From Vermiphilus sp. (GTDB lineage Bacteria > Ratteibacteria > UBA8468 > B48-G9 > DTJG01), in assembly GCA_020722805.1 (NCBI GenBank), contig DYKA01000003.1:1-42578 (forward strand): a stretch of DNA of 42,578 nt, written 5' to 3'. The notes beneath the pieces were generated by a model. The model saw nothing but the letters and a program-made list of their open reading frames with translations, was not told the origin of the DNA and searched no databases. A program made the translations under genes and the position numbers. Numbering within the stretch: position 1 is the stretch's first letter; each line of letters begins with the position of its first letter. Positions 1 through 42,578 of this stretch are shown in pieces.

Positions 1-91
1 CTCTGTGCCTGGTAGTTAATCTTTGTGCCTCTGTGCCGTTGATAAGTATTAACTTTGTGCCTACCCATAACGGGGTCCAGTAAGGATTTAC
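1..91. mobile_element. Right end of a MITE-like element, truncated by the window edge, with CTYTGTGCC repeats
   Basis: The reverse complement of 69-91 (GTAAATCCTTACTGGACCCCGTT) matches 42362-42384 at 20/23. Four CTYTGTGCC units start at 1, 21, 29 and 53. Confidence 0.6.
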
Positions 92-208
92 CATAAAAAA
101 TAATTTTATCACATGCGGTCAGGGTTGCCTATATTCCATCGTGCAGATATCGCAAAAGCACAAGCATTTCAAAATCAAACATAAGGAATACCATTCCACA
201 TTCCTGAA

Positions 209-237
209 TTGACTTACTGCCGACTGTAAAATAGAAT
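209..237 (+). promoter_or_regulatory. Sigma70-type promoter for purB, likely giving a leaderless transcript
   Basis: TTGACT(209-214)-17 nt-TAGAAT(232-237), then 6 nt to ATG 244; no Shine-Dalgarno. Confidence 0.6.
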
Positions 238-243
238 ATAGGC

Positions 244-1533
244 ATGATTCCAAGATATACAAGAAAAGAGATGAGGCAGATATGGTCGGATGAAACAAAG
301 TTTTCAACATACCTTGAGGTGGAAATCGCTGTGCTTGAAGCATACGCAGAGCTCAAGATTGTTCCAGAGGATACGGTTGAAAGTATCCGCAGAAACGCAA
401 AAGTCAATGTAGCAAGAATTGAAGAAATTGAAAAAATAACAAATCATGATGTTATTGCCTTTGTTGAACAAATCGGTGAAACAATCGGTAATGCAAGCAG
501 GTATTTTCATTATGGATTGACTTCATCAGACCTCATAGATACTGCAACAAATCTTCTTTTAATCAGGGCAACCAATCTTTTGATTGACGACCTTGTGAGG
601 TTTTCTGAAACCCTTAAAAAGAAGGCAATTGAATACAGGGATACCCCGCAGATTGGAAGGACACACGGAGTTCACGCAGAACCGATTACCTTTGGTTTCA
701 AAATTGCCGGCTGGTATTGCGAGGTAAAAAGAGATATTGAAAGGTTGAAAACCGCACTTTCAGAAATTAGCGTGGGAAAAATTTCAGGTGCTGTCGGAAC
801 ATATTCAAACATATCCCCTGAGGTTGAAAAAATTGTATGCAAAAAACTCGGCTTGAAACCAGAGGTGTTCTCTACCCAGATTATTCCGAGAGATAGATAT
901 GCCTGCTATATGTCAACGCTCGGAGTGATTGCTTCCAGCCTTGAAAGGATTGCACTGCAAATAAGACTGCTCCAGCAAACAGAGATAAATGAGGTTGCAG
1001 AACCGTTTGGAAAGGGACAGAAAGGTTCTTCAGCAATGCCTCACAAGAGAAACCCGATTCTTTGTGAAAGGATCTGCGGGCTTGCAAGGATAATAAGAAA
1101 AAACGTTGCAGTCAGCATGGAAAATGTTGCAATGTGGCATGAAAGGGATATCAGCCATTCCTCTGCAGAAAGAATAATTTTCCCTGAAAGTACGATACTT
1201 CTTGACTATATGATAAATCTTATCACCGGAATAGTTGAAGGAATGGAAGTATTTCAGGATAGATTGAACGAAAACATCAATCTTACGCTCGGGCTTGTAT
1301 TTTCCCAGAAAGTTCTTCTGACACTGTGCGATAAGGGACTTTCAAGAAAAGATGCCTACGAAATTGTCCAGAGAAATGCTGCAAGAAGCAGGAAAGAAAA
1401 AATACACCTGATGAAACTTCTGACTTACGACAACGAAGTGAAAAAGTATCTCTCCGAGGACGAAATTAAGTCGTGCTTTGACACTGATTGGTATCTCAGA
1501 AATATCCATACTCTTTTTCAACAATTAACATGA
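244..1533 (+). CDS. purB: Adenylosuccinate lyase
   Basis: MIPRY start, HDVIAFV, HYGLTSSD, GRTHGVHAEP and the GSSAMPHKRNP fumarate-lyase signature. Confidence 0.97.
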   Translation: MIPRYTRKEMRQIWSDETKFSTYLEVEIAVLEAYAELKIVPEDTVESIRRNAKVNVARIEEIEKITNHDVIAFVEQIGETIGNASRYFHYGLTSSDLIDTATNLLLIRATNLLIDDLVRFSETLKKKAIEYRDTPQIGRTHGVHAEPITFGFKIAGWYCEVKRDIERLKTALSEISVGKISGAVGTYSNISPEVEKIVCKKLGLKPEVFSTQIIPRDRYACYMSTLGVIASSLERIALQIRLLQQTEINEVAEPFGKGQKGSSAMPHKRNPILCERICGLARIIRKNVAVSMENVAMWHERDISHSSAERIIFPESTILLDYMINLITGIVEGMEVFQDRLNENINLTLGLVFSQKVLLTLCDKGLSRKDAYEIVQRNAARSRKEKIHLMKLLTYDNEVKKYLSEDEIKSCFDTDWYLRNIHTLFQQLT

Positions 1534-2555
1534 CGGGCTCATTTCTATCACTTAAAAATGGTTATTCTCTTTTCCTGAAACATACTCTTTTCGGCCAGCC
1601 CATTGAAAAGTGCAACGTCAGTAATTTCCGACATCTGCAGGAAAATGGCTTCTGGACTAAATTCAGTACCGACGGTATTGCCGAAACCCATTATTTCAAA
1701 CTTTTCCAGTATCCGATGAAAAAATTCCCTGGATTGAGCGTCATAAAGGCATCGGCAAATGGTATTGAAATCAGTGATGAATACTCTTATTTTCTTGCTG
1801 ACTTCATGACAGTGGATGAGACCATTGTCGTGGAAAATGCAAACATCTCAGAGGAAGAAACCAGACTCCTTGCAGAAGAAATACTGAGGAGTTTTGATTA
1901 TTTCGAGTTTGCTGTCGTCGGAAAAGGCCAGATTCTTGCATGGTTTCCTGGCAGATATCCTGCCTTTGAATGGAGATTCCCCTTTCAGATGATTGGCCTT
2001 GATTATACTAACTACCTTCCTGGAGAAAGAACATTCAGAACCCTTGTCAGAATCGTCTCAAATTCATGGCGAATTCTTAAGGACCATCCAGTAAACAGGG
2101 TGCGTCTTGACCTGGGTGAAAATCCTGCGAATTTTCTGTGGTTTCACAGTCAGAACAGACGTGTTGAAAGGATTGAACCACTTGCTGAAAAAATCAAGAG
2201 ACCAACAATATTCTGGCCTGCTGTTTCCACGATTTCCGATTTTGCAAGGTATCTCGGATTTGAAATCAGGGAAGGTCTTCCAGAAAACCCTGTGGACAAT
2301 GCATTTTTCTGGACAGATATTGAACTCCAGCCAGAAGACACTGTGTGTTTGATCAAAAAATGGGAATCAATTGACAGTGAACTGATTCCATTAATCAAAA
2401 AAAATTCTAATAAGATTGTGATGGAATTTAACAGTGGTTTCTGTAATAACAGCAGGATAGTGTATTTATTGCATCCCGGCAGGAACAAGGGATTTCTTCA
2501 AAGAATATTGAAACCGAAAAGTATTCCTGCAAAATTTCTGTTTTCTGATGAATAA
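1530..2555 (+). CDS. Divergent ApgM-like (cofactor-independent phosphoglycerate mutase family) protein, probably non-catalytic
   Basis: ILKDHPVNRVRLDLGENPANFLWF resembles the ApgM HPVN...G..PAN.iW motif, but no metal-binding motifs are recognisable. ATG 1530 overlaps the purB TGA (ATGA), preferred over 1488. Confidence 0.6.
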   Translation: MTGSFLSLKNGYSLFLKHTLFGQPIEKCNVSNFRHLQENGFWTKFSTDGIAETHYFKLFQYPMKKFPGLSVIKASANGIEISDEYSYFLADFMTVDETIVVENANISEEETRLLAEEILRSFDYFEFAVVGKGQILAWFPGRYPAFEWRFPFQMIGLDYTNYLPGERTFRTLVRIVSNSWRILKDHPVNRVRLDLGENPANFLWFHSQNRRVERIEPLAEKIKRPTIFWPAVSTISDFARYLGFEIREGLPENPVDNAFFWTDIELQPEDTVCLIKKWESIDSELIPLIKKNSNKIVMEFNSGFCNNSRIVYLLHPGRNKGFLQRILKPKSIPAKFLFSDE

Positions 2556-3063
2556 CATTTTTGTCGGACTCGGCAGCAATCTCGGGAACAGAAAGGAAAA
2601 CATAAAAAAAGCCATTGAAAAAATGTCCGAGTGTATTCAGATCCTAAATGTTTCCAGACTTTATAGAACCAAACCACAGGAAAACGTTCAGGGAGGATGG
2701 TTCCTAAATGGCGTTCTTCACGGAAGGACATCACTGACACCGATTGAACTGCTCAGATTTCTTCAATCAATTGAAAATCAACTCGGCAGGCCAGGAAATC
2801 ATAAAAAGAACACTGCAAGAACCATTGACCTTGATATACTTTTTTTTGGTAAAAAGATCATCAAGAATAAATTTCTGAGAATTCCTCATCCGAAAATCGC
2901 GGAGAGAAGTTTTGTTCTTGATGGCCTTTCAGAAATAGCGAGCGGATTCGTGCATCCTGAAACAAAGAAAACTGTAAGTCAAATGCTGAAGGAGTACAGG
3001 GATGGAAATATTAAAAACAAAAAGAGAAATTCGTGCAGTCGTGAAAAAAGCAAAAGAATCTAA
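2548..3063 (+). CDS. folK: 2-amino-4-hydroxy-6-hydroxymethyldihydropteridine diphosphokinase
   Basis: GLGSNLGNR, FLNGV, RTIDLDILFF, IPHP and ERSFVL motifs. Confidence 0.95.
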   Translation: MNNIFVGLGSNLGNRKENIKKAIEKMSECIQILNVSRLYRTKPQENVQGGWFLNGVLHGRTSLTPIELLRFLQSIENQLGRPGNHKKNTARTIDLDILFFGKKIIKNKFLRIPHPKIAERSFVLDGLSEIASGFVHPETKKTVSQMLKEYRDGNIKNKKRNSCSREKSKRI

Positions 3064-3844
3064 AAGGAGAATCGGGTTTGTGCCAACAATGGGATATCTT
3101 CACAAAGGGCATCTGGCACTGATCCAGAATTCAATGGAGGACGGATGCTTCACAGTGGTCTCAATCTTTGTAAATCCACTCCAGTTCGGTCCTTCAGAAG
3201 ATTTCCAGAGATATCCAAGGGATATTGAAAGAGACATTTCAATCCTGGAAAAAGCAAAGGTTGATGCTGTTTTCTTACCTTCTGATGATGAGATGTATCC
3301 AGCAGGGCATCTTACGGTTGTTTCTGTTCCAAATCTCTCCGGAAAATTTGAGGGTGCAATAAGACCAGGCCATTTTACCGGAGTGTGCACCATCGTGGCA
3401 AAATTGTTTAATATTGTGCAGCCACACAGAGCATATTTCGGCTGGAAAGATGCGCAACAACTTGTGGTTATAAGGAGAATGGTTAAAGACCTTGATTTTG
3501 ATATCTCGGTCATTGGAGTACAAACAGTCAGAGAACCAGACGGACTTGCGGCAAGTTCAAGAAACGTGTATCTCTCTGAAGACCAGAGACGCCGAGCACT
3601 TGTGTTATCACGGGCTTTACAGGAAATAAGACAGATGGTAGAATACAATAAGATTATAGATGCAGAAGTTCTTATATCCAGGGGCAGAGAAATCATTAAA
3701 TCAGAACAGGTTGAACTGCAATATCTGGAAGCAGTGGAACTTGAAAATTTTGAGATAATCAAAAACATCAGGAAAAATACCGGTATTATCGGCGCCATAA
3801 AGGTGGATAAGGTTAGATTGATAGATAACATAATATGGGACTAA
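3002..3844 (+). CDS. panC: Pantoate--beta-alanine ligase
   Basis: GFVPTMGYLHKGH, SIFVNPLQF, RPGHFTGV, FGWKDAQQ, SSRN and RLIDN motifs. Confidence 0.97.
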   Translation: MEILKTKREIRAVVKKAKESKRRIGFVPTMGYLHKGHLALIQNSMEDGCFTVVSIFVNPLQFGPSEDFQRYPRDIERDISILEKAKVDAVFLPSDDEMYPAGHLTVVSVPNLSGKFEGAIRPGHFTGVCTIVAKLFNIVQPHRAYFGWKDAQQLVVIRRMVKDLDFDISVIGVQTVREPDGLAASSRNVYLSEDQRRRALVLSRALQEIRQMVEYNKIIDAEVLISRGREIIKSEQVELQYLEAVELENFEIIKNIRKNTGIIGAIKVDKVRLIDNIIWD

Positions 3845-3845
3845 A

Positions 3846-4205
3846 ATGCTTTACCCTGTTTGCAGAGCAAAGATTAAAGGAGGAAAGGTAACAGGCAAGA
3901 ATCTCTATTATGACGGCAGCATTACAATTTCTTCAGAAATACTTGAAGCAGCCGGAATAGTTGCAGGCGACATTGTGGATGTTCTGAACCTTAGCAACGG
4001 CGCAAGGATAACAACATACGTCATAGTGGAGAACAAAAAGAAATGCGAGATATTCCTCAATGGTCCCGCGGCAAGATTTTTTGAAATAGGAGACCAGGTG
4101 ATCATTCTCAACATCTCTCTTGCGACAGAGCAGGAAAGAAACAAAACAAAAATGAAGGTGGTTTCACTATCTGAAAAAAATCAGATAGTAAAAGTGGAGG
4201 GTTGA
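3846..4205 (+). CDS. panD: Aspartate 1-decarboxylase proenzyme
   Basis: YDG|SITI self-cleavage site, NGARITTYVI and NGPAAR; adjacent to panC. Confidence 0.93.
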   Translation: MLYPVCRAKIKGGKVTGKNLYYDGSITISSEILEAAGIVAGDIVDVLNLSNGARITTYVIVENKKKCEIFLNGPAARFFEIGDQVIILNISLATEQERNKTKMKVVSLSEKNQIVKVEG

Positions 4206-4206
4206 T

Positions 4207-5619
4207 ATGGCAAGTATAAGTAATAATATAAAAAAGTACAGTGCAAGACAGGCTCTCTCTGGTGTATTGAAAATTCTACCCCACCTTTCAGACCAAAATG
4301 TGATTCGCATCCTGTCCATTGCTGAAAAGGTATCCGCGAATCCCGCCTTCAAAGAAAGGGTTCTTGTCATTGAAGAAAAAATACGACAAAAACATCCTGC
4401 ACTTGAAGTGATAAGGCGCCTTAACGGGCAACTTTCCCAGATTCCAAAGAAAAAACTCATAATGAATCTCTTTTCAAATGCAATGTTTGACGGGACAAAG
4501 AAAAGACAGGAAATTCTGGAAAAAGAAGGATGGAGACCTCCATTTTTCTTTGTATTGAGTCCAACAATGAGATGCAACCTTAAGTGCACTGGATGTTATG
4601 CTGCCCAGTATACGAAGCAGGATGTCATTACAACAAAACAGATTGACAAAATCTTCACGGAAGCAAAGAAACTTGGTATTTACTTTGTGACAATAAGCGG
4701 TGGAGAACCCTTTTACAGGGAAGACCTTCTGGAATTATGGAAGAAACATAATGATATGTTTTTCCTTGTTTATACAAACGGGACTCTCATTGACGAAAAG
4801 ATGGCAGAAAAACTGCGCGACTTAGGTAATGTGGCCCCTGCCATCAGCGTTGAAGGTTTCAAGGAAGAAACAGAAAGAAGAAGAGGACCCGGGGTTTATG
4901 AGAAAATCCTCAATGCATGGAAGCATCTCAAAGAAAATGGAGTGCTTTTTGGATTTTCTGCAACCTGCACAAAACATAATGCAGAGGTAATTTACAGTGA
5001 TGAATTCATTGATTTTATGATAGAGCAGGGTGCTTTGTTTGGCTGGTATTTTCAATATATTCCCATCGGTAGAAAACCGGATACTACCCTTATGGCAACC
5101 CCAGAACAAAGAGCATGGGCCCGCGAGCGACTTGAACACATAAGAAACACACGAGCAATAATACTTGCTGATTTCTGGAATGACGGGCATCTTGCCGGTG
5201 GATGCATAGCAGGAGGAAGGGTTTACTTTCACATTAATTCACACGGCGACATTGAACCCTGTGTTTTTACACATTTTACAAAAGACAATATTAAAAATAC
5301 AACAATCAGACAGGCACTCCAGAGCGACCTTTTCAAGGCGATTCAAAAACGTCAGCCATATTCAAAAAATTTAATGTGTCCGTGTATGATTATTGACAAT
5401 CCGCAGGTTTTGAGGGAAGTCGTTTCTGAGACAGGTGCCAAACCATCGTATCCAGGTGCAGAATCAATCATAACTGAAAGCGCACAATTCCTTGACGAGT
5501 ATTCAAAAACAATACACCACCTGTGGGACCCTGTCTGGAAGGAAAAATACAAGGAAGGCAGGGTACTGAAAGGAATTGATTCTGAGGTGGCGTCAAGAAT
5601 TTTTGACCAGGAACAATAA
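4207..5619 (+). CDS. Radical SAM protein with SPASM/twitch-type C-terminal domain
   Basis: CNLKCTGC, SGGEP, YTNGT, GCIAGGRVYFHINSHGDIEPCVF and CPCMIIDNP motifs. Confidence 0.9.
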   Translation: MASISNNIKKYSARQALSGVLKILPHLSDQNVIRILSIAEKVSANPAFKERVLVIEEKIRQKHPALEVIRRLNGQLSQIPKKKLIMNLFSNAMFDGTKKRQEILEKEGWRPPFFFVLSPTMRCNLKCTGCYAAQYTKQDVITTKQIDKIFTEAKKLGIYFVTISGGEPFYREDLLELWKKHNDMFFLVYTNGTLIDEKMAEKLRDLGNVAPAISVEGFKEETERRRGPGVYEKILNAWKHLKENGVLFGFSATCTKHNAEVIYSDEFIDFMIEQGALFGWYFQYIPIGRKPDTTLMATPEQRAWARERLEHIRNTRAIILADFWNDGHLAGGCIAGGRVYFHINSHGDIEPCVFTHFTKDNIKNTTIRQALQSDLFKAIQKRQPYSKNLMCPCMIIDNPQVLREVVSETGAKPSYPGAESIITESAQFLDEYSKTIHHLWDPVWKEKYKEGRVLKGIDSEVASRIFDQEQ

Positions 5620-5641
5620 CACTTTTTGAAGAGCCATCAGG

Positions 5642-6319
5642 ATGAAAATCTCTGGCCAGGTCATAGAAAAAATTAACAGAACACAGCGTGTGATAAGTAT
5701 TAGAATTGAAAATTCAGATGTAAAATTCAAAGCAGGACAGTTCTTCAAACTTTACTCAAATAACGAATTCAGATATCTTTCTGTTTCCTGTTCACCAAAA
5801 AGAAATTATCTTGAATTCACAAAAAGAATAACAGAGAGCGAATTTTCATCGTGGTTCAAATCTCTGGAAATCGGTCATCGGATTATCGCTGAGGGCCCTT
5901 ACGGAAAATTTGTGATGGAGGAGGAAAACAAAATCCTTTTTATAGCGGGTGGTATGGGAATTACGCCTATATTAGGTTTGATTGATGATGCCTTTTTAAC
6001 ATCCAGCAAGAAAGATTTTGTGCTATTCTACGGGAACAGGTCGTGCGATGATATTCCCTTTTACGATGAGCTGAATCATTATTCAGGATCAATCAAACTG
6101 AAACTTTTCATTTTTACAGAGGAAAAAAAGGAAGGGTTCTATTACGGTCTCATAGATCTCAAAAAAATATTTGAACTTTTGCCAGATGCAACTGAAAGAA
6201 CTGCTTTTGTCTGTGGTCCACCGGGAATGGTTGAAACAATAACCAAACAGATAAGAAAATCTAATTTTACAGATGGATTGAAAACAGAAAAGATTATCGG
6301 CTATCAGGAGGAAATATGA
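5642..6319 (+). CDS. FAD/NAD(P)-binding oxidoreductase, ferredoxin-NADP reductase (FNR)-like
   Basis: [33 protein letters not shown] and VCGPPGM motifs. Confidence 0.88.
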
Positions 6320-6474: not shown

Positions 6475-6488
6475 GAGGAGGAACTAAA

Positions 6489-22881: not shown

Positions 22882-24075
22882 ATGAAAAAGAAAATTGTGA
22901 TATGGGTTGCTGGTTTTTTTCTATTGAGTTTCCTTCTCGGGTTTAACCTTGAAGTATCTCAAGCAAGAAAAAATGAGGAAGAGTTTTATCGCGAACTTGA
23001 ACGTTTTGTAAATGTCGTAAACATAGTAAAAAAAGAATATGTGACACCTGTTAATGATAAAAAACTCATATATGGCGCACTGAAAGGCATGCTATCTTCT
23101 CTTGACCCTTACAGCGCCTTCCTTGAACCAGAAGCATCAAAGGAACTACAGATTGAAACATCTGGAGAATTTGAAGGTGTCGGAATGGAAATAACATTGA
23201 AGGACGGAATAATAACTGTTGTAAGCCCTATACAGGATACCCCTGCATGGAATGCAGGAGTTAAGCCAGGAGACAGAATAATAGAAATAGATGGAAAATC
23301 AACAAAAGGAATGAATACATGGGAAGCAGCGCAAAAACTCAGAGGCAAGAAAGGAACATCTGTAACCATCAGTGTTCTGCGGGAACACACCACAAAGATT
23401 ATCAAGATAACCCTTGTCAGAGATGTCATAAAGGTGAAATCAATTAAAAGCTCAATTCTGCCTGGAAACATCGGATACGTGAGAATAACTAATTTTCAGG
23501 AAAGAACAAGCACGGATCTTGAGGCAGTTATAAAAGAATTAATCAATCAACAGGTACAGGCATTAATTCTTGATCTCAGGAATAATCCAGGGGGACTTTT
23601 GAGCTCAGCCATAGAGGTGAGTCAAATGTTCCTGCCTGAGAAAAAGATTATCGTTTCAATTCAGGGCAGAAAACCAGAAGAAAAAAGAACTTATTATTCT
23701 CAGAAACCTCCATTATGGAACAAACCAGTTGTTCTGCTTGTCAACAACGGAAGTGCAAGCGCATCAGAAATCGTTACAGGTGCACTCAGAGACAATATCA
23801 GCACCTGCAAGGTTATCGGAACGAAGACCTTCGGTAAGGGCTCTGTCCAGAATCTGATAAAACTTGATGAAGATGGAACATCCATGAAACTGACGATTGC
23901 CTATTATTATACACCTTCCGGCACTAAGATTGATGGTAAAGGCATTGAGCCCGATATTAAAATTGAGGCACCAGAAGATATTGAAATGGGTTCTCTTGAA
24001 AAAGATGTTCAGTTAAAAAAGGCAGTAGAAGAATTATCAAGTCAGATGCAGGCAACAGTTGTAAATACTCAGTAA
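22882..24075 (+). CDS. ctpA: Carboxyl-terminal processing protease, S41 family
   Basis: LDPYS, PDZ domain (GVGMEI), DLRNNPGG, SASASEI and TFGKGSVQ. The last 4 codons and the stop come from an inserted MITE. Confidence 0.92.
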   Translation: MKKKIVIWVAGFFLLSFLLGFNLEVSQARKNEEEFYRELERFVNVVNIVKKEYVTPVNDKKLIYGALKGMLSSLDPYSAFLEPEASKELQIETSGEFEGVGMEITLKDGIITVVSPIQDTPAWNAGVKPGDRIIEIDGKSTKGMNTWEAAQKLRGKKGTSVTISVLREHTTKIIKITLVRDVIKVKSIKSSILPGNIGYVRITNFQERTSTDLEAVIKELINQQVQALILDLRNNPGGLLSSAIEVSQMFLPEKKIIVSIQGRKPEEKRTYYSQKPPLWNKPVVLLVNNGSASASEIVTGALRDNISTCKVIGTKTFGKGSVQNLIKLDEDGTSMKLTIAYYYTPSGTKIDGKGIEPDIKIEAPEDIEMGSLEKDVQLKKAVEELSSQMQATVVNTQ

Positions 24076-24157
24076 AGTACATTTTATTGCAAAGTGAAAA
24101 GTGAAAAATAATTTTAATCTTGCAGTTTACAATTTGCATTTTGCATTGAATATTTAC
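24061..24157. mobile_element. 97-bp MITE-like element with GTAA...TTAC ends and an 8-bp target duplication (IS66-family-like signature)
   Basis: TIRs GTAAATACTCAGT / ATTGAATATTTAC (11/13). CAACAGTT is duplicated at 24053-24060 and 24158-24165. The interior holds inverted heptamer repeats. Confidence 0.85.
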
Positions 24158-24167
24158 CAACAGTTAA

Positions 24168-34945: not shown

Positions 34946-35010
34946 GTAAACACTCAATAAAGTACATTTTACACTGAATATTCAGTAAACGATGCTTACT
35001 GAATATTGGC
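34946..35010. mobile_element. Degenerate, internally rearranged copy of the 24061 MITE
   Basis: 34946-34971 matches 24061-24086 at 24/26. It contains TGAATATT twice, and the flanks CTGTAGCA/CAGGAGCA match at 6/8. Confidence 0.65.
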
Positions 35011-35195: not shown

Positions 35196-36344
35196 ATGAA
35201 AAGAATTTTTGTGATACTAATCCTGATATTTATTGCCATACTCGGATTCAGAATATACCAGAAATCCACAGCATATACTCCTCCCGGCATAGGTGAAATG
35301 CAAAAACAGTCAGGGATACCGGCTGATGTACTTGTTGTTCAGCCGCAAAATTTTTCAAAAAGTATTGATGCTACCGGCACCATAGGAAGCGAGGAGGAGG
35401 CCTATATTTCTGCAAAAATTCCAGGCAGGGTCGCTGCGGTGAATGCAGATGCAGGCATGCTTGTAAACAAAAATCAAATACTTCTGAGAATAGATGATTC
35501 CCAGTTAAAAATACAAAAGGCACAGATACAGAACCAGATAGTAATAGCACAGTCCAATCTTGATGCAGTCAAAATCCAGATGGATGACGCAGAACGCGAC
35601 TACAAACGGATGGAAGAATTATTCAATGAAAATGTTATCTCAAAAAAACAACTTGAGTCATATCAGGTTAAGTTTGAAACACTGAAGAAAAATTATGAGT
35701 CAGCAAGAAAAAACATTCAGGTCGTTAAAGATAGTCTCAAACTTATAGAAACACAAATTGAGGATTGCATCGTCAGAGCACCCTTCTCGGGAATTATAGG
35801 AACAAAAAGGGTTGAAACAGGCGAGGTTGTTGGAGCAGGAATGGTTCTGATGACACTTTATAATATCAACAATCTGAATGCCCAGATAAAAGTACCTGAA
35901 AATTATATACCTTTGATAAAAAAGGGTCAGGAGGTAGGAATGAAAACCGATGTCTCTGAACAGAAATTTTACGGAAAAATTACAAAAATTTCCGGAGCTG
36001 CTGACCCGAAAACAAAAATGTTTATTGCGTATGTTTCAATATCAAAGAATAATCTTCCTATAAAACCAGGCATGTTCGTTCAGGCAAATATTATTATCAG
36101 TGAAAGAAACAATGTTATCACTGTACCCCAGCAGGCAGTATTTGAAGATAAGGGAAAGAAATGCGTATATATTGTTGAAAAAGACACAGCGAAAAAAGTT
36201 GAAATAATTACCGGCGAAAAAACAGACAACCTGATTGAGGTTAAATCAGGACTTGTCCCGGGAAATACGGTTGTGGTTTTCGGTAAGGAAAACCTTTTAT
36301 CTGGCGCAAAAGTGAAAATTGTAAAAACAGAAAAAATGCAATGA
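35196..36344 (+). CDS. RND efflux periplasmic adaptor (MFP) subunit
   Basis: N-terminal TM, ISAKIPGRV, coiled-coil hairpin, VRAPFSGII, IKPGMFV and SGLVPGNTVVVFG. Confidence 0.93.
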   Translation: MKRIFVILILIFIAILGFRIYQKSTAYTPPGIGEMQKQSGIPADVLVVQPQNFSKSIDATGTIGSEEEAYISAKIPGRVAAVNADAGMLVNKNQILLRIDDSQLKIQKAQIQNQIVIAQSNLDAVKIQMDDAERDYKRMEELFNENVISKKQLESYQVKFETLKKNYESARKNIQVVKDSLKLIETQIEDCIVRAPFSGIIGTKRVETGEVVGAGMVLMTLYNINNLNAQIKVPENYIPLIKKGQEVGMKTDVSEQKFYGKITKISGAADPKTKMFIAYVSISKNNLPIKPGMFVQANIIISERNNVITVPQQAVFEDKGKKCVYIVEKDTAKKVEIITGEKTDNLIEVKSGLVPGNTVVVFGKENLLSGAKVKIVKTEKMQ

Positions 36345-39300
36345 ATCCTGTTAGATTGGCAGTAAAAAAACCTGTTTTTGTTCTGGTCATATTTTTCATC
36401 ATAATGCTGCTTGGCTTCTTCTCGCTTCCAAAGTTGCACGTTGATCTTGCTCCAAAGGTTGAAATTCCTATCGTCACCGTTATTACTGTTTACCCTGGTG
36501 CAGGACCAGACCAGGTTGAAACCCTTGTGACAAAACCCATTGAAGATGCCATAAGCACAACGAATAATCTGAAGAATATAAAATCAAGCTCTGTTGAGGG
36601 CGTGTCAATCATTGTGGCTGAGTTCAACATGGGTTCATCTGTTGACATCGCAGTAACTGACGTAAGGGAAAAGGTCTCCTCAATGATTGGAGATCTTCCT
36701 GAGGGCGCAAAACAGCCCGAGATTTTGAAGCTTGATATAAACGCGTCACCCATCCTTTATCTCAGCATCACAGGTAATGACCTTAAAAAGATCTACGACG
36801 TGGCCGACAACTTTGTCAGGGTGAAACTCCAGACCGTTCAGGGCGTCGGAAAAATAGATATTATCGGTGGTGAAAAAAGAGAAATAAGAGTTGAGGCAAT
36901 TCCTGAAAGACTCCTGTATTATGAGATTGATCTGACAACCATTGCACAGAGATTGAAGGTTGAAAATATCAACATTCCTTCCGGTCATTTTCTGATGGAT
37001 GATAGAGAGGTTTCAGGAAGATTAAATACAGAATTCAAAAGCCCCGAAGAAATAAAGCTCATTGACCTGCCTGTCTTTGATATGTCAACCGGAAGTATCA
37101 GAACAGTTCCTCTCAGCAGTGTTGCGAATGTATTTGACACAACAGCCGAAATAAGAGATAAAACAAGAACAAATGGCAAAGATTCTGTTGGAATCATTGT
37201 TCAAAAACAGCCAGACGCAAACACTATCCAGGTTGTGGATAGTGTAAGAAAGGTTCTTCCTGATATCCAGAAAGGGCTTCCAGAAGACTCAAAAATTGCA
37301 ATCGTGACTGATACATCAGAGTTTATCAAGGATGCTGTGAGTGATGTCTGGCATAAACTTTTTATAGCAGTCATTCTGACAGGGCTTATACTTTTTGTCT
37401 TTTTGTACAGCGTGGGAAGCACGCTCATTGTCTGTCTTGCAATACCTGTTTCTCTTGTCGGGACACTTTTTTTTGCATATCTTTCAAGATTTACATTGAA
37501 TATTCTCTCCCTTTCAAGCTTAACCCTTTCAGTCGGCATTGTTGTTGACAGTTCAATTGTTATCATTGAAAACATATATAGACATAAAAAAGAATTGAAG
37601 GAAAAAGGCGAAGAGGCAGCAGAAAAAGGCGCTCTTGAGGTTGCTTCAGCAGTGAGTGCCACAATGCTTACCCATATGGTTGTGTTTCTGCCGATTGTAT
37701 TTATGTCGGGTCTTGTGGGACAGTTTTTCAAAGAATTCGGGATGATACAGGTTTATACATCCCTGCTTGCTCTGGGAGTGGGTTTTACCCTGACACCGAT
37801 GCTGACAACAAAATTCCTGAAAGATACCGGAGAAAAAGATTGGGCAATAAAAGCAGAGAAAAAATTTGAACAGTTCAAAAATGGATATAGAAGAACTCTT
37901 TTGAAATTTTTACATAGGCCCGGACCGGTGCTTGTGGTTATCGGCATACTGATACCGCTCAGCTTTACATTGCTTCCTTTTATCGGCATTGAAATGATAA
38001 CAAATGCAGACGAAGGAATATACAATATATCCCTCAGAATGCCCCCGGGCACAAATCTCCAGAAAACAGAATCAATTGTAAAAGTCATTGAAGAAAAGGT
38101 GTTATCAATACCTGAAACAGATCAGGTTTTCGCAACTATTGGAAAGATTTCAGGAATGTTTGCCGGCATGGGCTCAGAAGGTCCTGAATATGCTCAGCTT
38201 CTGGTAAAACTCAAGGACGTAAGAAAAAAATCAACCACCCAAATAGTGGAAGAAATTAAACCGTTTCTCGCAGGAATACCAGGAACTATTACAGTTGCTG
38301 AGCAAAGCACAATCGGTTCAGGCGGCAGACCGCCTCTTGAAATATATATCACAGGCACAGATGAAAAATCAGTAATACAGACATCTGAAGAGGTACTTAA
38401 TATAGTCCAGTCAACTGATGGAGTTTCAAGTGCTGATTCATCATATAATCCAGGCAAACCAGAGATAAATTTTGTCATTAAAAGACCCAAGTTAGCTCAG
38501 TACAATCTGAATTCAAATCAGGCTGCAATGATATGCAGGTCTGCTCTTGAAGGAATAGTCCCATCAAAATTCAGGGTTGGTGAAAATGAATATGATATAA
38601 GGGTAACGATACCAGAAAAAGATAAAAAAGATATAAATGTACTTGAAAATCTAACAATTGTAAATCCCATGCAAAATGTTTTCTTGTTAAAACAGATCGC
38701 TGAAATAAAAGAAACATATGGACCAACAACCAGAGAAAGATACGATAGAAAACCGAGTGTTACAATACTCGGAAATATTAACAAACCCCTGGGAACAGTG
38801 ATGGCAACATTGAATAAAGAGATAAAAAAACTAAATCTTCCAGAAGGCACATCCATAATATTTGGAGGTCAGAGTGAAAGAATGGCTGAATCCTTCAGAG
38901 ACCTTTTTCTTGCTTTGATTCTGTCGGTGCTGCTTGTTTATCTTGTAATGGCGGCTCAGTTTGAAAGCTGGGTGGAACCATTTATCATTATGGGAACACT
39001 TCCTCTATCAATTATTGGAATTCTTACAGGCCTTTTTATAACAGGAAAGACAATAAACATATTCAGTTTAATGGGGATGATTGTTCTTGTTGGAATAGTT
39101 GTAAGCAATGGCATATTGATTGTCAACTTTGCAAAAAATCTGATTCAAAGGGGTAAAAACCCTGAAGAGTCAGTTATTGAAGCAAGTGCATCAAGATTGA
39201 GGCCGATTTTGATGACAACTCTGTCTATGATAGGCGGAATGCTACCGCTTGCACTTGCTGTTGGAAAAGGCTCTGTGCTTAAAGCACCGATGGCTGTCAG

Positions 39301-39400
39301 CGTTATCAGCGGGTTGATAAGTTCCACTCTTTTAACTCTTTTTATTATTCCGCTTGTCTATTTGTTTTACGCGAGACGAAAATATAAAAAACAGCAATAG
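36341..39400 (+). CDS. RND efflux transporter permease (AcrB/HAE1-like)
   Basis: 1019 aa; YPGAGP, GIVVDSSIVIIENI, GIVVSNGILIV and RLRPILMTT. Confidence 0.95.
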   Translation: MNPVRLAVKKPVFVLVIFFIIMLLGFFSLPKLHVDLAPKVEIPIVTVITVYPGAGPDQVETLVTKPIEDAISTTNNLKNIKSSSVEGVSIIVAEFNMGSSVDIAVTDVREKVSSMIGDLPEGAKQPEILKLDINASPILYLSITGNDLKKIYDVADNFVRVKLQTVQGVGKIDIIGGEKREIRVEAIPERLLYYEIDLTTIAQRLKVENINIPSGHFLMDDREVSGRLNTEFKSPEEIKLIDLPVFDMSTGSIRTVPLSSVANVFDTTAEIRDKTRTNGKDSVGIIVQKQPDANTIQVVDSVRKVLPDIQKGLPEDSKIAIVTDTSEFIKDAVSDVWHKLFIAVILTGLILFVFLYSVGSTLIVCLAIPVSLVGTLFFAYLSRFTLNILSLSSLTLSVGIVVDSSIVIIENIYRHKKELKEKGEEAAEKGALEVASAVSATMLTHMVVFLPIVFMSGLVGQFFKEFGMIQVYTSLLALGVGFTLTPMLTTKFLKDTGEKDWAIKAEKKFEQFKNGYRRTLLKFLHRPGPVLVVIGILIPLSFTLLPFIGIEMITNADEGIYNISLRMPPGTNLQKTESIVKVIEEKVLSIPETDQVFATIGKISGMFAGMGSEGPEYAQLLVKLKDVRKKSTTQIVEEIKPFLAGIPGTITVAEQSTIGSGGRPPLEIYITGTDEKSVIQTSEEVLNIVQSTDGVSSADSSYNPGKPEINFVIKRPKLAQYNLNSNQAAMICRSALEGIVPSKFRVGENEYDIRVTIPEKDKKDINVLENLTIVNPMQNVFLLKQIAEIKETYGPTTRERYDRKPSVTILGNINKPLGTVMATLNKEIKKLNLPEGTSIIFGGQSERMAESFRDLFLALILSVLLVYLVMAAQFESWVEPFIIMGTLPLSIIGILTGLFITGKTINIFSLMGMIVLVGIVVSNGILIVNFAKNLIQRGKNPEESVIEASASRLRPILMTTLSMIGGMLPLALAVGKGSVLKAPMAVSVISGLISSTLLTLFIIPLVYLFYARRKYKKQQ

Positions 39401-39470
39401 CCCACGGGGAGATTTGAACTCCCGACCCGTCGCTTACGAAGCGACTGCTCTACCGCTGAGCTACGAGGGC
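39399..39470 (-). tRNA. tRNA-Thr(CGT)
   Basis: GCCCTCGTAGCTCAGCGGTAGAGCAGTCGCTTCGTAAGCGACGGGTCGGGAGTTCAAATCTCCCCGTGGGCT; CGT anticodon, U5-U68 mismatch, CCA not encoded. Confidence 0.94.
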
Positions 39471-39509
39471 ACATTATAATTATACACAAAAAGCACCACT
39501 TATGAAAAT

Positions 39510-40637
39510 TCACCTCTTTGTTATGTTTGAAAGAGCATATCTTGCAACATCATTCAATTCACTGTATGGATAAAAAATTGCAATCTGTCTGAAACAATTC
39601 TTTGCTTTTTCCTTTTCTCCTTTATCAAGGTAAAGCGTGCCAAGATTATACAAAGCATTATCAGCAAAATTACTGAAAGGATTATTCCGTATGAATCTTC
39701 TGTAAGCCAGAATTGCTTCATCAAATAGTCCTTGGTCCTGCAGTAATTCTGCAAATCTATATCCCAATGATTTAGGAATCCGAACTTCCGAGAACCTTTT
39801 CAGTGCTTCTCCGTAAAGGACCGCTGATTCTCTTTCATTCTTCTCCTGCACCAGGTGTTTAATCTGATTTTCCACATTGAAAAGTTCAACCTGATCTTCA
39901 AATGGGATTATCTTCATCACGCTTTCCCCGGCAATATCGTAAAGAAAACTGCTGCCGGACTTGATGTTCAACACATACCTCATACGTTGAAATCCTTTCG
40001 TAAGCAGCGCAATCCCCATGCCTGCCAGAAATCCTCCGATATGAGCACCAAAAGCAATGCCGGAAGTTGCTGATGAATTTACATTCATCATCATTCCGAT
40101 AATCTGCTGGACAAACCAGAATGAAATCCAGAAATATGAAAAAATGTTGAACGTTCCGGTATAAATTTTAAAGATAAGAAAAAGCCAGTACCAGAAGGTA
40201 ATTCTACTTTTCGGAAACAGCATCAGATAAGCACCCAGCACTCCTGATATAGCGCCGGAGGCACCAATTGAAGGAATTGTTCTTGCATCACCGTTTGTAA
40301 AAAACCCATAAAAAAGTGCAGCGATTATCCCGGAAAAAAGATAAAAAAGGAAGTACTGGAAATGTCCCCATCTATCCTCAAGGTTATCACCCATCAGATA
40401 CAGATACCACATGTTTCCTATAAGATGCATTATGCTTCCATGTAAAAACATTGAGGTAAAAATTGTAAACCATGAAAATCTTGCAGGAATAAACCCAAAA
40501 TTCCTGATAATTTCTTCATATCCACTGCTGAAACCAAACAAAAAATAAATAATGACATTTGTAAAAATTATCGTATAATTGATAACAGGGATTTTTTTAA
40601 CTCCAAATTCATCACGAATCGGCCAGAAAAAAAACAT
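39510..40637 (-). CDS. Rhomboid intramembrane serine protease with C-terminal TPR domain
   Basis: MFLHGSIMHLIGNM, GASGAISGVLGAY and AHIGGF; TPR-like ADNALYNLG...YP.S. Confidence 0.9.
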   Translation of the reverse strand: MFFFWPIRDEFGVKKIPVINYTIIFTNVIIYFLFGFSSGYEEIIRNFGFIPARFSWFTIFTSMFLHGSIMHLIGNMWYLYLMGDNLEDRWGHFQYFLFYLFSGIIAALFYGFFTNGDARTIPSIGASGAISGVLGAYLMLFPKSRITFWYWLFLIFKIYTGTFNIFSYFWISFWFVQQIIGMMMNVNSSATSGIAFGAHIGGFLAGMGIALLTKGFQRMRYVLNIKSGSSFLYDIAGESVMKIIPFEDQVELFNVENQIKHLVQEKNERESAVLYGEALKRFSEVRIPKSLGYRFAELLQDQGLFDEAILAYRRFIRNNPFSNFADNALYNLGTLYLDKGEKEKAKNCFRQIAIFYPYSELNDVARYALSNITKR

Positions 40638-40667
40638 AGAAAATTGTCCTTTTTATAAAATTATATT

Positions 40668-41603
40668 ATGAATTCCGGAAGGTTCAAAAATGCGCTTGTT
40701 GTAAAACCTGGAAGCATCGGCGATACTGTTGCTGCATTTCCCGTATTTTATTCCCTGAAAGAAAATTCTTACAATGTTTATTTTATTGGCTCAGAAAAAA
40801 TGATCGGTTATCTTGAAAGAATAAAATTTATTGAAAAGGGTATTGGCTTCGGTGATTCACGCCTTTTAGAATTTTTTACTTATCAGAGAAAATTCACGGT
40901 TCCTGAAATGCCAGATTTTGACATTGTTATTTCCTACATTGAACCAGATACTATATTCGGCCAGAACATCCTGAATACATATAAGGATAATGCTGTTTTT
41001 CATCCTGTGCCAGAAGAACCTGCCAGTCATATCACTGAATTTCTTCTTGAACCCCTTCATAAATCAGGAATAAAAGTAATGTTTGATATAGAAAGAAAGG
41101 TAAACAAACATGGTAATGACATTCTTTTTATTCATCCTGGCAGCGGAAGCAAAAAGAAAAACCTGCCACCCGAAGGTTTTCTTGAAATTTTTACAGAATT
41201 GAACCAAACATGCGAGTGCAGGATAATAATCGGGGAATGCGAAAAGTCAGATATGGACTACTGGGTTAAAAATGCTGGAGCCGAAAATATCATTGAACCG
41301 GAAACAATAGATGAACTTGCAAAAAAACTTGAAAATGGTTCCTGGTTTATTGGGAATGACAGCGGTGTTTCTCACCTTGCAGCATTTCTTGGATTAGATA
41401 CATTTATCATCTTTGGACCAACAGACCCACAGATATGGGCTCCGAAAGGCAAAAAAGTTAAAATCATACAGACAACTGCAGAGTGCGCACCCTGCAATTA
41501 CCAGACAAGAAAAAATTGTCAGAGTATGAAATGCTTGAAAGAGATAAACGTTCAGTCTATCATATCTATGATAAAACAGGTTGTGAAGAAGAAAAGGAGG
41601 TGA
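40668..41603 (+). CDS. Glycosyltransferase family 9 (ADP-heptose:LPS heptosyltransferase-like)
   Basis: GSIGD, HPGSG...KN, IGNDSGVSHLAA, FGPT...WAP and CAPC...C...C. Confidence 0.88.
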   Translation: MNSGRFKNALVVKPGSIGDTVAAFPVFYSLKENSYNVYFIGSEKMIGYLERIKFIEKGIGFGDSRLLEFFTYQRKFTVPEMPDFDIVISYIEPDTIFGQNILNTYKDNAVFHPVPEEPASHITEFLLEPLHKSGIKVMFDIERKVNKHGNDILFIHPGSGSKKKNLPPEGFLEIFTELNQTCECRIIIGECEKSDMDYWVKNAGAENIIEPETIDELAKKLENGSWFIGNDSGVSHLAAFLGLDTFIIFGPTDPQIWAPKGKKVKIIQTTAECAPCNYQTRKNCQSMKCLKEINVQSIISMIKQVVKKKRR

Positions 41604-41933
41604 ATGAAAATGAAGAAAACATTTATTATATTGTCTTTATTCTGTCTATGTCTTTTCATCAGCGGATGCAGTAAGAAACCCGCTGGTGAAATAGGAGAAA
41701 AAGCAAAAGAAACAGGTGAAAAAGTATTCCAGAAACTCAGAGGTACGGCCCATCAGGACAACCTTATGTATCTCAAAAACAAGATCAATACTTACAAGCG
41801 GCAGAATGGAAGGTATCCTGATTCACTGCAACAACTTGTCAATGAAGGTTTTATTGACAGAATACCCGAGCCACCTGCAGGAATGCAGTATCAATATGAC
41901 CCATCAACAGGAAAATTAAGTTTCAAGCAATAG
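41604..41933 (+). CDS. Lipoprotein with a GspG/pseudopilin-like globular domain
   Basis: GGAGG SD, signal peptide with ISG|C lipobox, and YKRQNGRYPDSLQQLV..GFIDRIPEPP.G..YQYD. Confidence 0.75.
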   Translation: MKMKKTFIILSLFCLCLFISGCSKKPAGEIGEKAKETGEKVFQKLRGTAHQDNLMYLKNKINTYKRQNGRYPDSLQQLVNEGFIDRIPEPPAGMQYQYDPSTGKLSFKQ

Positions 41934-42109
41934 CTGTACTGGATATAAATCAAAAGTGCCGGCAAAACTTACGGCCAATTATTTCGCCTTCAGAGAATAC
42001 GAAAAATTGATGACTATTTTATACTTAAGATAAAACAGGGTTGTTCACCCCCATTTGATATTTCATAACTGAAGTATAAGAGTTCATTCTCAAAGCAGAA
42101 AAGAGTCAA

Positions 42110-42227
42110 TGTGGATATTGCCGTATGTGGATACCCCAATGTCACGTCAGGATAACCACATCCTTGCCTGCTCGCACCCTTTGGGTTACCCACAATCTCC
42201 ACATTACTACTATTATTTTTTCAAAAA
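42110..42227. other. Putative replication origin core (DnaA-box cluster, DnaA-trios, AT-rich tract)
   Basis: TGTGGATAT 42110, TGTGGATAC 42126, ATAACCACA 42152, tandem TTACCCACA/ATCTCCACA 42186-42203, then TTACTACTATTATTTTTT. Confidence 0.65.
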
Positions 42228-42361
42228 CCTGAAAGACATAAAGTGGGTATCAAAGAAAAAAAACTTTTGGAAATAAAGACTGGCTCAAAAATTGAAATCA
42301 ACCCTACGGTGAAAAATTTTGACAAAAACTGGGGGGTAAAATGAGAGTGATAATTAAATCT

Positions 42362-42578
42362 GTAAATCCTCACTGAACCACGTTCGCCTCCCCCTTGCGG
42401 GAGTTTGCCAAAGCATCAGTGGCGGAAGTGGGGAGGCAGGCACTCAGGATGAGTGCGGTGGGGGTGATATAGTGGGGGTGATATAATAGAATGTCACCCT
42501 CACCCGAACCCGTCTTGCACTGCGTGCTTCGGTCAGCGGCCTCACCCTCTCGGCCTTAGTGCTATACGGTGCTCTTTC
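42362..42578. mobile_element. Left end of a MITE-like element with GC-rich REP-like hairpins, truncated by the window edge
   Basis: GTAAATCCTCACTGAACCACGTT matches the inverted end at 69-91. Tandem GTGGGGGTGATATA x2 (42458-42485), GCCTCCCC/GGGGAGGC and GCACTC/GAGTGC stems, TCACCCTC repeats. Confidence 0.6.

Follow-up and report, generated by a model that had tools for sequence, protein, structure and literature searches.

Bacterial MITEs are well known, and the Correia elements are one example of those that derive from insertion sequences (IS). Two reports describe MITEAba12, and MITECca01 of Cardinium, as small, non-coding elements with terminal inverted repeats (TIRs) and target duplications, whose ends are those of a resident or related IS and whose many copies are mostly intergenic (PMC6382973, PMC9769881). 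ISDge4 of Deinococcus geothermalis, a member of the ISBst12 group, has only one transposase ORF, the TIRs GTGACTACTCAGCA and GTAACTGCTCAGCA, and a direct repeat of 8 bp (PMC12898284), and the IS66-family elements ISPpa5a and ISPpa7 have 8-bp repeats as well (PMC3281130). IS66-type ends can also enclose DNA that does not serve transposition, as in the 'tIS66' elements with passenger genes, e.g. ISPa75 with fosZ, and the same report mentions one MITE, of 161 bp, which has a repeat of 4 bp and lies close to an IS66 remnant (PMC12888890). A further likeness is offered by the REP/REPIN sequences that go with RAYT, which are described as short, abundant, hairpin-forming extragenic repeats (PMC3116915). 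The literature searched does not describe any family of MITEs derived from IS66, nor did we find in it an account of three co-resident IS66-ended MITE families, or of small-gene hairpin cassettes such as those considered below.

The window, that is, the whole stretch of 42,578 nucleotides analysed here, is the entire contig C166 of a fragmented, metagenome-type assembly (1.79 Mb, 182 contigs, 92% complete), and both of its ends break inside repeats. It holds four elements, all of which belong to three families (A, B and C) of GTAAAT-ended miniature elements; these are very probably gene-less MITEs with termini of the IS66 family in its single-transposase, ISBst12-like form, two of the three interior families matching the hairpins of small genes. 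Differing interiors mark different families, and those of B and C are long hairpins of short inverted repeats. The features of the window are the following:

1..91, minus strand: element 1, a family B miniature element truncated at the contig start to its left-end part; the genome has 48 family B left ends, this one included
74-91, minus strand: TIR of element 1, read on that strand as GTAAATCCTTACTGGACC then CCGTTATGGGTAGGCAC
1-9, 21-29, 29-37, 53-61: CTYTGTGCC nonamers, interior repeats of element 1
24053..24060: left copy of the target-site duplication CAACAGTT, 8 bp, perfect
24061..24157, plus strand: family A miniature element, 97 bp, with TIRs at 24061-24073 and 24145-24157
24088-24108 and 24119-24147: its interior heptamers, TGMAAAR and inverted TGYAAAN respectively
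24158..24165: right copy of the target-site duplication CAACAGTT, 8 bp, perfect (8/8)
34946..35010, plus strand: decayed remnant of a family A copy, with 26 nt of left end (GTAAACACTCAATAAAGTACATTTTA) fused to a right-end terminal hairpin at 34977-35007
42362..42578, plus strand: element 4, family C-type, cut by the contig end
42362-42379, plus strand: TIR of element 4, GTAAATCCTCACTGAACC then ACGT
42387-42436: GC hairpin of element 4
42437-42457: small hairpin of element 4
42458-42481: two copies of GTGGGGGTGA, facing TCACCCTCACCC
42482-42493: centre of element 4, 12 nt
42494-42505: TCACCCTCACCC of element 4
42506-42578: further repeated GC-rich module of element 4

The elements lie where the initial annotation had put them, with the small correction that the TIR of element 1 spans 74-91 and not 69-91, and the interior repeat types that it had listed (CTYTGTGCC, inverted TGMAAAR, and GC-rich GTGGGGGTGA/TCACCCTCACCC hairpins) are all present. 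Since the contig ends truncate elements 1 (1-91) and 4 (42362-42578), their far ends and duplications are out of view. The motif GTAAATCCTYACTGRACC is exact at 74-91 (minus) and 42362-42379 (plus), the window's two matches at up to three mismatches against 0.09 expected, while GTAAATAYTCART is exact at 24061 (plus) and 24145-24157 (minus) and has one mismatch at 34946; at up to two mismatches it has 14 matches in the window, with 5.85 expected, and the other 11 are near chance. The element at 24061-24157 is devoid of some 60 bp of interior when compared with 12 other complete family A copies (143-181 bp), and for annotation it is relevant that its insertion rewrote the end of a gene, providing the ORF at 22882-24075 with its stop and the five codons before it, and separated two translationally overlapping genes. 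The remnant at 34946-35010 ends in the long right-end variant known from other family A copies, here degenerate (ATTGGC in place of ATTTAC), and its flanks agree at just 5/8 positions. Its hairpin folds with z = -3.41; the interior of element 4 (z = -4.63) and family B (z = -5.19) fold far better than shuffles, and family A has no such advantage over them (z = -0.75 and -1.69). No ORF of at least 90 aa was found within the window copies.

The same ends recur throughout the genome, as the initial annotation had anticipated: exact GTAAATAYTCART occurs 36 times against 0.2 expected, and GTAAATCCTYACTGRACC at up to two mismatches 33 times against 0.4 (10 first-order Markov simulations). At least 146 A/B/C loci cover 16,583 bp and lie at 81 of the 364 contig ends; the repeats are collapsed in this fragmented assembly, so these copy numbers are minimum values and some joins may be wrong. 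Among termini close to contig ends, 35 have a body that runs off the end and 5 point the opposite way. Complete copies measure 97-230 bp, and in the long form of family B, of about 430 bp, no reading frame was seen by eye. When ends were paired, the predicted duplication length of 8 bp was borne out, with five of 28 candidate pairs matching at 8/8 and four at 7/8, whereas none of 28 control pairs reached 6 of 8 in either of two controls. The remaining 19 candidate pairs have no duplication, some of them being wrong pairings or nested copies but several being clean-looking copies (on C58, C98, C150 and C171); pairing of family B across contigs, with 39 left and 29 right ends, gave only two perfect 8/8 pairs.

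These data bear on whether the elements are mobile at all. That they might be immobile regulatory or structural sequences, such as terminators or protein-binding arrays, or else artefacts of assembly and binning, could be argued from the position of many elements between genes, from the fragmentation of the assembly, and from G030, a genome of another family, whose copies of A and B are 90-97% identical to those here. Yet the site occupied at 24061-24157, with its precise 8-bp duplication, is empty in three same-genus genomes (G005, G011 and G009); a search of 11 same-genus genomes gave neither family A nor family B, except for one weak family A match (E 5e-4, G005); insertions sit within other copies; and the G030 contigs have unique flanks that either lack a match in the source genome or match it at only 67.5%. 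Both the presence/absence difference and the duplications contradict this reading, which we regard as extremely improbable.

A partner for the ends is found in G012, a genome of the same family, whose contig C5 carries an intact IS66-family element of 2,487 bp (L008:887-3373). Its ends, GTAAATCCTCAGTCAACCCCGTTATG and GTAAATATTCACTGAACCCCGTC, match those of the miniature elements, its terminal inverted repeats begin with GTAA (GTAAATCCTCAGTCAACC and GTAAATATTCACTGAACC), and the duplication ATAGAAAC flanks it on both sides (8/8). The TnpC of 587 aa matches PF03050 at 2e-48 (165.7 bits, cut-off 23.1), as does its homologue in G038 at 1.1e-49. The single-transposase ISBst12 group fits this element, not the canonical three-gene form, because it comprises only a 111-aa DUF6788 ORF and the transposase, with no tnpA or tnpB. 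The first 26 bases of element 1 match its tnpC-side end at 22 positions. B-like miniature copies are also present in G012, one of them flanked by TTTAAAAC (8/8) and with a right end that equals the IS end over 20/20 bases; three of eight miniature copies there have a duplication at 7-8 of 8. The source genome holds only two decayed copies of the cognate transposase, on C19 and C7, with the end GTAAATCCTCAGTAAACCACGT, which family A left ends match at 17/20 bases and the first 22 bases of element 4 at 20 (both for the C19 copy). No intact cognate transposase was found in the source assembly, and the intact canonical IS66 on C23 has different ends (GTAAGCGCTCAG; its terminal repeat reads GTAAGCGCTCAGTAAACC). 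The attribution of the ends to IS66 thus stands, and the full transposase sought with them exists intact in G012 but only as decayed copies in the source genome.

Taken together, these observations suggest that an IS66-type DDE transposase would bind the GTAAAT termini in trans and insert the elements through 8-bp staggered cuts, that the burst of elements in the source species may have been recent, and that the source transposase may since have decayed or have been left unassembled. A different enzymology would apply if the elements were extragenic palindromes of the REP/REPIN type, spread by a RAYT-type (Y1) transposase instead of being derivatives of a DDE element. They are indeed short, abundant, mostly intergenic and partly palindromic, and one Y1_Tnp gene exists in the source genome (C29:3583-3909); that gene, however, is flanked by unrelated GACAGACCYGGCACTTTT repeats, the ends of the elements match the IS66-family element over 20-26 bases, and Y1 transposition, as in IS200/IS605 and the RAYTs, makes no target duplication, whereas 8-bp duplications are present here. 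Contradicted by the duplications and by the shared IS ends, a REP/REPIN origin is in our view very improbable.

As to the interiors, two of the three repeat types have counterparts beside small genes in relatives. At G012:C36 a TIGR02436 four-helix-bundle gene lies between GGCACAnAG and CTnTGTGCC arrays. These share the 2+4 layout of the family B interior and, over 33-46 nt, have 85-97% identity with the arrays of that family, a link made at one locus in one genome. In several relatives, GGGGGTGA/TCACCCTC and GC hairpins of the family C type flank DUF559 genes, with a GC hairpin and GGTGGGGGTGA upstream and TCACCCTCACCC and a GC hairpin downstream. It is because these repeats flank genes at a hairpin apex that the MITEs can be said to carry such modules in a gene-less state. 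The DUF559 module, for one, is also carried in a unit of its own, about 500 bp long: two 502-bp units in G009 are 99.8% identical, with ends of their own and 8-bp direct repeats at both loci, and their ends match gene-less units in the source genome, among them the one on C110, a gene-less DUF559-type unit to which the interior of element 4 (about 42386-42510) is about 94% identical. The resemblance to small-gene flanks proposed beforehand finds support for CTnTGTGCC with the four-helix bundle and for GGGGGTGA/TCACCCTC with DUF559, but not beyond these: no gene-bearing counterpart of the TGMAAAR heptamers of family A was found in 40 relatives, and the flanks of the only GxxExxY locus found are of another kind. 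At 16 of the 22 small-gene loci, inverted complementarity between the flanks exceeded that of every one of 150 controls, a test passed by only four of eight four-helix-bundle loci.

The initial annotation had gone further and envisaged a two-tier system, with hairpin cassettes as a separate mobile class that inserts into, and is exchanged between, IS66-ended platforms, ends and interiors re-assorting independently. IS66 ends and gene-less forms of two module types are indeed seen, and the finding that gene-bearing cassettes exist outside GTAAAT ends, with none of 24 gene-bearing loci holding its small gene between such ends as had been expected, speaks for cassettes that lead a separate existence, as do the DUF559 unit with its own ends and direct repeats at the two G009 loci and the occurrence of three repeat types within three families with IS66-type ends. 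The two TIR types recognized at the outset are both real motifs, but their variants form a continuum and do not map one-to-one onto interiors, family B left ends using both (26 and 14 of 48), which is also what re-assortment would give. On the other hand, subterminal sequences co-vary with interiors, as expected of diverged families, and there seems to be no free population of nonamer cassettes in the source genome, since a GTAAAT terminus is in reach of 24 of the 29 nonamer arrays and four others lie near contig ends, leaving a single array with neither. The mixed loci that can be read, 2 of 23 having been resolved, are explained by ordinary nesting of one element in another or by hybrids, with 8-bp duplications of their own: a family C copy lies inside family A with CTTTTCAC on both sides, and the hybrid at C137:5607-5901, which combines an end of family B with one of family A, has its own duplication ATAAGGAA (8/8). 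Nested and hybrid elements explain much of the apparent interchange of interiors, no cassette exchange event was caught, and we consider the full two-tier system doubtful.

The relationship may also run the other way, the hairpins being native to the MITEs or to local repeats, and the small genes being independent selfish genes that prefer a hairpin apex, in which case gene-less forms are empty targets and not decayed cassettes. The exact placement of the gene at the hairpin centre, both at G012:C36 and in the DUF559 case, is compatible with this; so are the repeats that flank four-helix-bundle genes, which vary by locus (three different motifs in G039 alone), and the nonamer arrays of G012, eight of nine of which sit in MITEs while the single other one holds the gene. 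Nevertheless, no GTAAAT ends enclose the cassette of G012, and the two DUF559 copies of G009 share both their hairpins and their outer ends, so that gene and flanks moved together there as one unit; insertion of independent genes is, on balance, unlikely. Returning to the reading of the elements as gene-less MITEs with IS66-family termini, the gene may have been either lost from a cassette or inserted into a hairpin. As a tentative extension, the small genes of three enigmatic families that often have several copies (TIGR02436, the DUF559 Vsr-like endonuclease, GxxExxY) might, together with the long hairpin at whose apex they sit, form mobile cassettes of a class of their own, which would exist with or without the gene, the gene-less ones being captured by IS66-type ends and amplified as MITEs in this lineage; if so, one selfish element would be riding on the transposition machinery of another.

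The families are of consequence for their host genome, a small one, in that they nest, hybridise and break it into many contigs, and the G012 transposase together with A, B or C ends offers a testable pair. Four-helix-bundle and DUF559 genes are widespread, often in many copies, and the agent that spreads them has been unexplained; gene-bearing and gene-less forms of one hairpin module can now be compared side by side, and because the ends of one module are defined and 8-bp direct repeats accompany it, the movement of these small genes becomes testable.

Compared with known systems, the G012 partner resembles the IS66/ISBst12 group in its DDE_Tnp_IS66 domain, its inverted repeats starting with GTAA and its 8-bp duplication, and differs from the ISBst12 examples in the small DUF6788 ORF upstream of the transposase and in its GTAAAT termini; the window, for its part, holds not an IS66 element itself but high-copy miniature derivatives. 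Unlike known bacterial MITEs, families A, B and C have IS66 as parent family, co-exist as three families that nest and form hybrids, and in two cases have interiors that match gene-flanking hairpins. Whereas the tIS66 elements are autonomous and enclose a functional gene, the present ones are non-autonomous and enclose a gene-less hairpin module. REPs, in turn, lack target duplications and are associated with an adjacent Y1 transposase gene, in contrast to the 8-bp duplications and IS66 ends found here. BOX elements and BIMEs are mosaics of a few short blocks that vary in number and order, a trait shared with our mosaic loci, but no transposase partner or regular target duplication is known for them, whereas the mosaic loci here that can be read are nested or hybrid elements with 8-bp duplications. 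Finally, 23S rRNA intervening sequences with a TIGR02436-type ORF carry, as here, a four-helix-bundle gene at the apex of an inverted-repeat stem, although the four-helix-bundle loci described here lie outside rRNA, between protein-coding or tRNA genes.

The GTAAAT-ended elements of this genome resolve into three families, here called A, B and C, which were defined from 121 internal repeat regions together with an alignment of copies and which can be taken, as a solid conclusion, to be MITEs of an ISBst12-like IS66 element. Repeats were mapped by 16- and 14-mers, the 13-mer map being too noisy in an AT-rich genome. Family A, about 143-181 bp in size, runs from the left end GTAAATACTCAGTAAAGTACATTTTAT through two to five TGMAAAR heptamers, a centre and four inverted heptamers to a right end of two kinds, one short and one furnished with a terminal palindrome. 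Family B consists of inverted GGCACAnAG arrays; its short copies measure about 180-220 bp, and a longer version of about 430 bp is observed across contig breaks only. The GC-rich family C is exemplified by C149:1261-1424 and by C56 from 19285 onward (C numbers denote contigs). The three kinds of interior repeat that the initial annotation described are all present in the window, in these four elements:

1-91, minus strand: family B left end
24061-24157, plus strand: family A element with about 60 bp of its interior missing
34946-35010, plus strand: family A remnant, its left end fused to the right-end palindrome and its terminus mutated
42362-42578, plus strand: left end of family C type whose interior is longer

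Single-strand folding far exceeds that of shuffled sequences for family B (z = -5.19), for the interior of the fourth element (z = -4.63) and for the palindrome of the third (z = -3.41); it does not for family A (z = -1.69; window copy -0.75). Rfam has no entry for the GTAAAT-element sequences: in the window it identifies two tRNAs only, and five repeat-rich loci give no match even at an E threshold of 0.1. Around the fourth element further repeats are apparent: 53 bp just upstream (42212-42264) are made of 16-mers with at least three genome copies, and the tail (42506-42578) is a further GC-rich module, …CTTCGGTCAGCGGCCTCACCCTCTCGGCCTTAGTGCTATACGGTGCTCTTTC, that recurs at C177:2758-2812 (98%) and on C22, C115, C104, C84 and C61, and that on C177 and C155 adjoins sequences resembling tRNA 3' halves. 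A 39-bp mini-element on C86 (5518-5556), which is made up almost entirely of the two family A termini in head-to-head junction, lies within another, 142-bp repeat and shows no duplication.

The terminal motifs are strongly over-represented, as the initial annotation had anticipated. Within the window the long TIR motif occurs exactly at 74-91 (minus strand) and 42362-42379 (plus strand), that is, twice against 0.09 expected, and the short one exactly at 24061 (plus strand) and 24145-24157 (minus strand), with one mismatch at 34946; genome-wide there are 36 exact copies of GTAAATAYTCART against 0.2 in simulations, and 33 copies of the long motif with up to two mismatches against 0.4. A BLAST census with ten representative copies counts 146 A, B or C loci, totalling 16,583 bp and located at 81 of the 364 contig ends of an assembly of 1.79 Mb in 182 contigs (92% complete, 39.5% G+C). 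Among termini no more than 450 bp from a contig end, the body of the element runs off the end in 35 and lies in the opposite direction in 5, the bias that assembly breakage at these repeats would produce. The window is contig C166 in its entirety, and both of its termini lie inside repeats, so that the first and fourth elements were cut by assembly and not by biology. A circular contig in which these two form one element is ruled out, the first being of family B and the fourth of family C.

Evidence of transposition comes from target-site duplications, for which a loose end pattern was dropped because it yielded mostly chance pairs (813 matches against 1,133 in the shuffle). Under stricter, objective pairing rules we obtained 28 candidate end pairs, whose flanks agree at 8/8 positions in five, at 7/8 in four and at no more than 4 in the remaining 19, while neither of two controls gave more than five matching bases; the predicted 8-bp duplications thus exist in 9 of the 28. 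Alternative or nested pairing accounts for some of the 19, and several clean copies among the 28 have no duplication. The family A copy at 24061-24157 bears CAACAGTT on either side. For family B, cross-contig pairing of 39 left with 29 right ends produced two matches that are perfect over 8 bp (C16-C77 and C151-C161), the controls giving 0 and 1 pairs at 7/8 or better. The site of the 24061 element is uninterrupted in three genomes of the same genus (G005, G011 and G009), in which the upstream gene's stop and the following gene's start overlap (…AAATGA…); the insertion therefore split two overlapping genes and gave the upstream reading frame a new tail.

A full transposase with the same ends, which the initial annotation had proposed to look for, was found in G012, a genome of the same family, and not in this one. 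A PF03050 search here returned a canonical IS66 that is intact, on C23 (ends GTAAGCGCTCAG…), and on C19 a broken copy that has the end GTAAATCCTCAGTAAACCACGT, an internal deletion and a frameshift; C7 retains a DUF6788 reading frame and transposase residues 1-57 only. Among 40 relatives the C19 fragment has full-length homologues in G038 (75% identity) and in G012 (64%). The G012 element is complete: 2,487 bp, ends GTAAATCCTCAGTCAACCCCGTTATG and GTAAATATTCACTGAACCCCGTC, with ATAGAAAC on either side, encoding a 111-aa DUF6788 protein and a 587-aa IS66-type transposase. The B left end of the window matches its tnpC-side end at 22 of 26 bases, a B right end from G012 matches its other end at 20 of 20, and the C end of the window matches the C19 end at 20 of 22. 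B-like MITEs give 22 matches in G012, and eight of the nine nonamer arrays there lie within GTAAAT-ended elements of 170-226 bp, three of which have duplications at 7-8 of 8 bases. The canonical IS66 of C23 (480-2998) appears intact, with three ORFs (130, 130 and 534 aa), and is without matching 8-bp flanks; it may be a candidate cross-mobiliser of the GTAAAT elements. The sole Y1_Tnp gene (IS200/IS605- or RAYT-like; C29:3583-3909, minus strand, within the region 2800-4300) has GACAGACCYGGCACTTTT repeats on both flanks, which are unrelated to the GTAAAT elements.

The interchangeable look of the interiors is in part a product of ordinary nesting and of hybrids, 23 of the 146 loci joining two or three families. 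On C56 a family C copy sits within family A with CTTTTCAC duplicated; on C64, C74, C96 and C110 family A is nested in B at …AAAAACTA; and B is nested in A after …AAACTTAGC at 7 of the 26 left ends of one B variant. A hybrid at C137:5607-5901, with a B right end at one boundary and an A left end at the other, carries ATAAGGAA on either side, and this duplication of its own suggests that the same machinery accepts ends of different families. The two TIR types that the initial annotation distinguished are better read as variants, neither of them tied to an interior, since the left ends of family B occur in both (26 and 14 of 48).

As for a second tier of repeat cassettes shared with small genes, it is real as a relationship between sequences for two of the three kinds of repeat: the likeness to gene flanks that the initial annotation had proposed was borne out between family B and one four-helix-bundle (TIGR02436) gene and between family C and DUF559 genes, and not for the TGMAAAR heptamers or for GxxExxY. 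This genome has no GxxExxY or TIGR02436 gene and a single DUF559 gene, which lies among AAATCCCCC/GGGGGATTT hairpins with no GTAAAT ends; of the 40 relatives, 16 have DUF559, 6 TIGR02436 and 1 GxxExxY. A four-helix-bundle gene on G012:C36 is preceded by GGTACATAGGCACAGAG and followed by CTTAGTGCCTTTGTGCCTTAGTGCCTCTGTGCC, in the 2+4 layout of the B interior, and its arrays are 85-97% identical over 33-46 nt to B arrays from both G012 and this genome. That locus has no GTAAAT ends, a search for an orthologous empty site in G014 and G013 gave no match, and 52 genomes of the order contain no further copy of the cassette. The nonamer arrays of this genome have a GTAAAT terminus within reach in 24 of 29 cases and clearly lack one in 1.

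DUF559 genes are preceded by a GC hairpin and GGTGGGGGTGA and followed by TCACCCTCACCC and a GC hairpin, and matches of the C interior in relatives land exactly at their ends. In G009 two 502-bp DUF559 units at different loci, 99.8% identical, start with GGTAGTGTCAA… and finish with …TTGGCAGAAC, with 8-bp direct repeats (GTTCAAAA and TGAATATT) one base outside the ends. Gene-less units with both of these ends occur here on C110, C123 and C84, the last with TAAAAAAC on either side; compared with the C110 unit, the fourth element's interior shows about 94% identity between the first hairpin and TCACCCTCACCC inclusive, and has 12 nt only where the DUF559 gene would be. Inverted local alignment of the 110 nt on each side of the gene at 22 small-gene loci put 16 above all 150 local controls (four-helix-bundle 4/8, DUF559 11/13, GxxExxY 1/1), an exact 7-mer test being weaker (four-helix-bundle 1/8 above the control maximum). 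The flanks of the single GxxExxY locus are unrelated. A GxxExxY remnant in the long B interior is unsupported, the only blastn-short match of the G004 locus in this genome being 21 nt in an unrelated gene. The expectation that a small gene would lie between GTAAAT termini failed at every gene-bearing locus (0 of 24). Against the full two-tier system stand this result, the GTAAAT termini near most nonamer arrays of this genome, the narrow range of the heptamer arrays and the flanks of the GxxExxY locus.

Several further arrangements deserve mention. A repeat unit with a conserved left motif GGTAGTGTCAAGAAAYAGATGAAAGATTT (7 copies here) and a conserved right motif …AACATAGCCAAATTTGGCAGAAC (18 copies), as at C84:16722-16955, C110:13065-13301 and C123:3067-3281, holds mostly GC-clamp hairpins (CCCCCTTTnnAAAGGGGG) between the two; nearly all of the right ends, judged by eye, are followed after about 15-35 nt by a ribosome-binding site and start codon. 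The G009 version of the unit bears DUF559 with 8-bp direct repeats, and the left motif recurs, in few copies, in 6 of 41 genomes from three families. The unit may be mobile and bear a promoter, or it may be a conserved regulatory region. At L064 (G018:C44:362445-365762) the repeats (…AATGACCTGACCCGTTCATAGGGGATTG…) of an array that is CRISPR-like in appearance enclose a four-helix-bundle gene flanked by GAGCTGAAG/CTTCAGATCTTCAGC, and after the next repeat follows a gene-less copy retaining only the last ~40 nt of the gene; in a 2023 Science paper '23S rRNA IVP' figures among the CRISPR-associated proteins (PMC10910872). At L063 (G003:C5) and L065 (G024:C27) four-helix-bundle genes lie directly between tRNA genes, flanked by short inverted tandem repeats of their own, of the GTTAATAGT and GGCATATGGCA types.

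The families differ in their distribution. Among 40 relatives family A has matches in G030, of another family in the same order (90-97% identity), and besides these two weak hits only; within the 11 same-genus genomes there is no match beyond one weak one (E 5e-4, G005). Heptamer arrays are confined to this genome (60 matches, control 1) and G030. Family B is present in G012 (70-74% over its full length), G014 and G030. The G030 copies (L019, L023 and L025) are of A and A+B composite type, and one A left-end fragment lies upstream of an orthologue of the gene that follows the A copy at C171:4804-4980 here. The unique flanks of the G030 contigs have no match to this genome or match at 67.5%, so that the sharing is no simple mis-binned duplicate; it could reflect horizontal spread or an old insertion common to both, or else a problem of binning.

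The openly accessible article texts searched describe neither MITE families derived from IS66 nor hairpin cassettes surrounding these small genes; MITEPsy2, considered as an IS66-related precedent, is Tn3-related (PMC3189936). IS66-family elements captured in Paracoccus generate 8-bp repeats (PMC3281130), and ISDge4, a member of the ISBst12 group, combines GTAACTGCTCAGCA-type ends and an 8-bp repeat with a single ORF (PMC12898284). The published hallmarks of IS66-family elements agree with those observed here.
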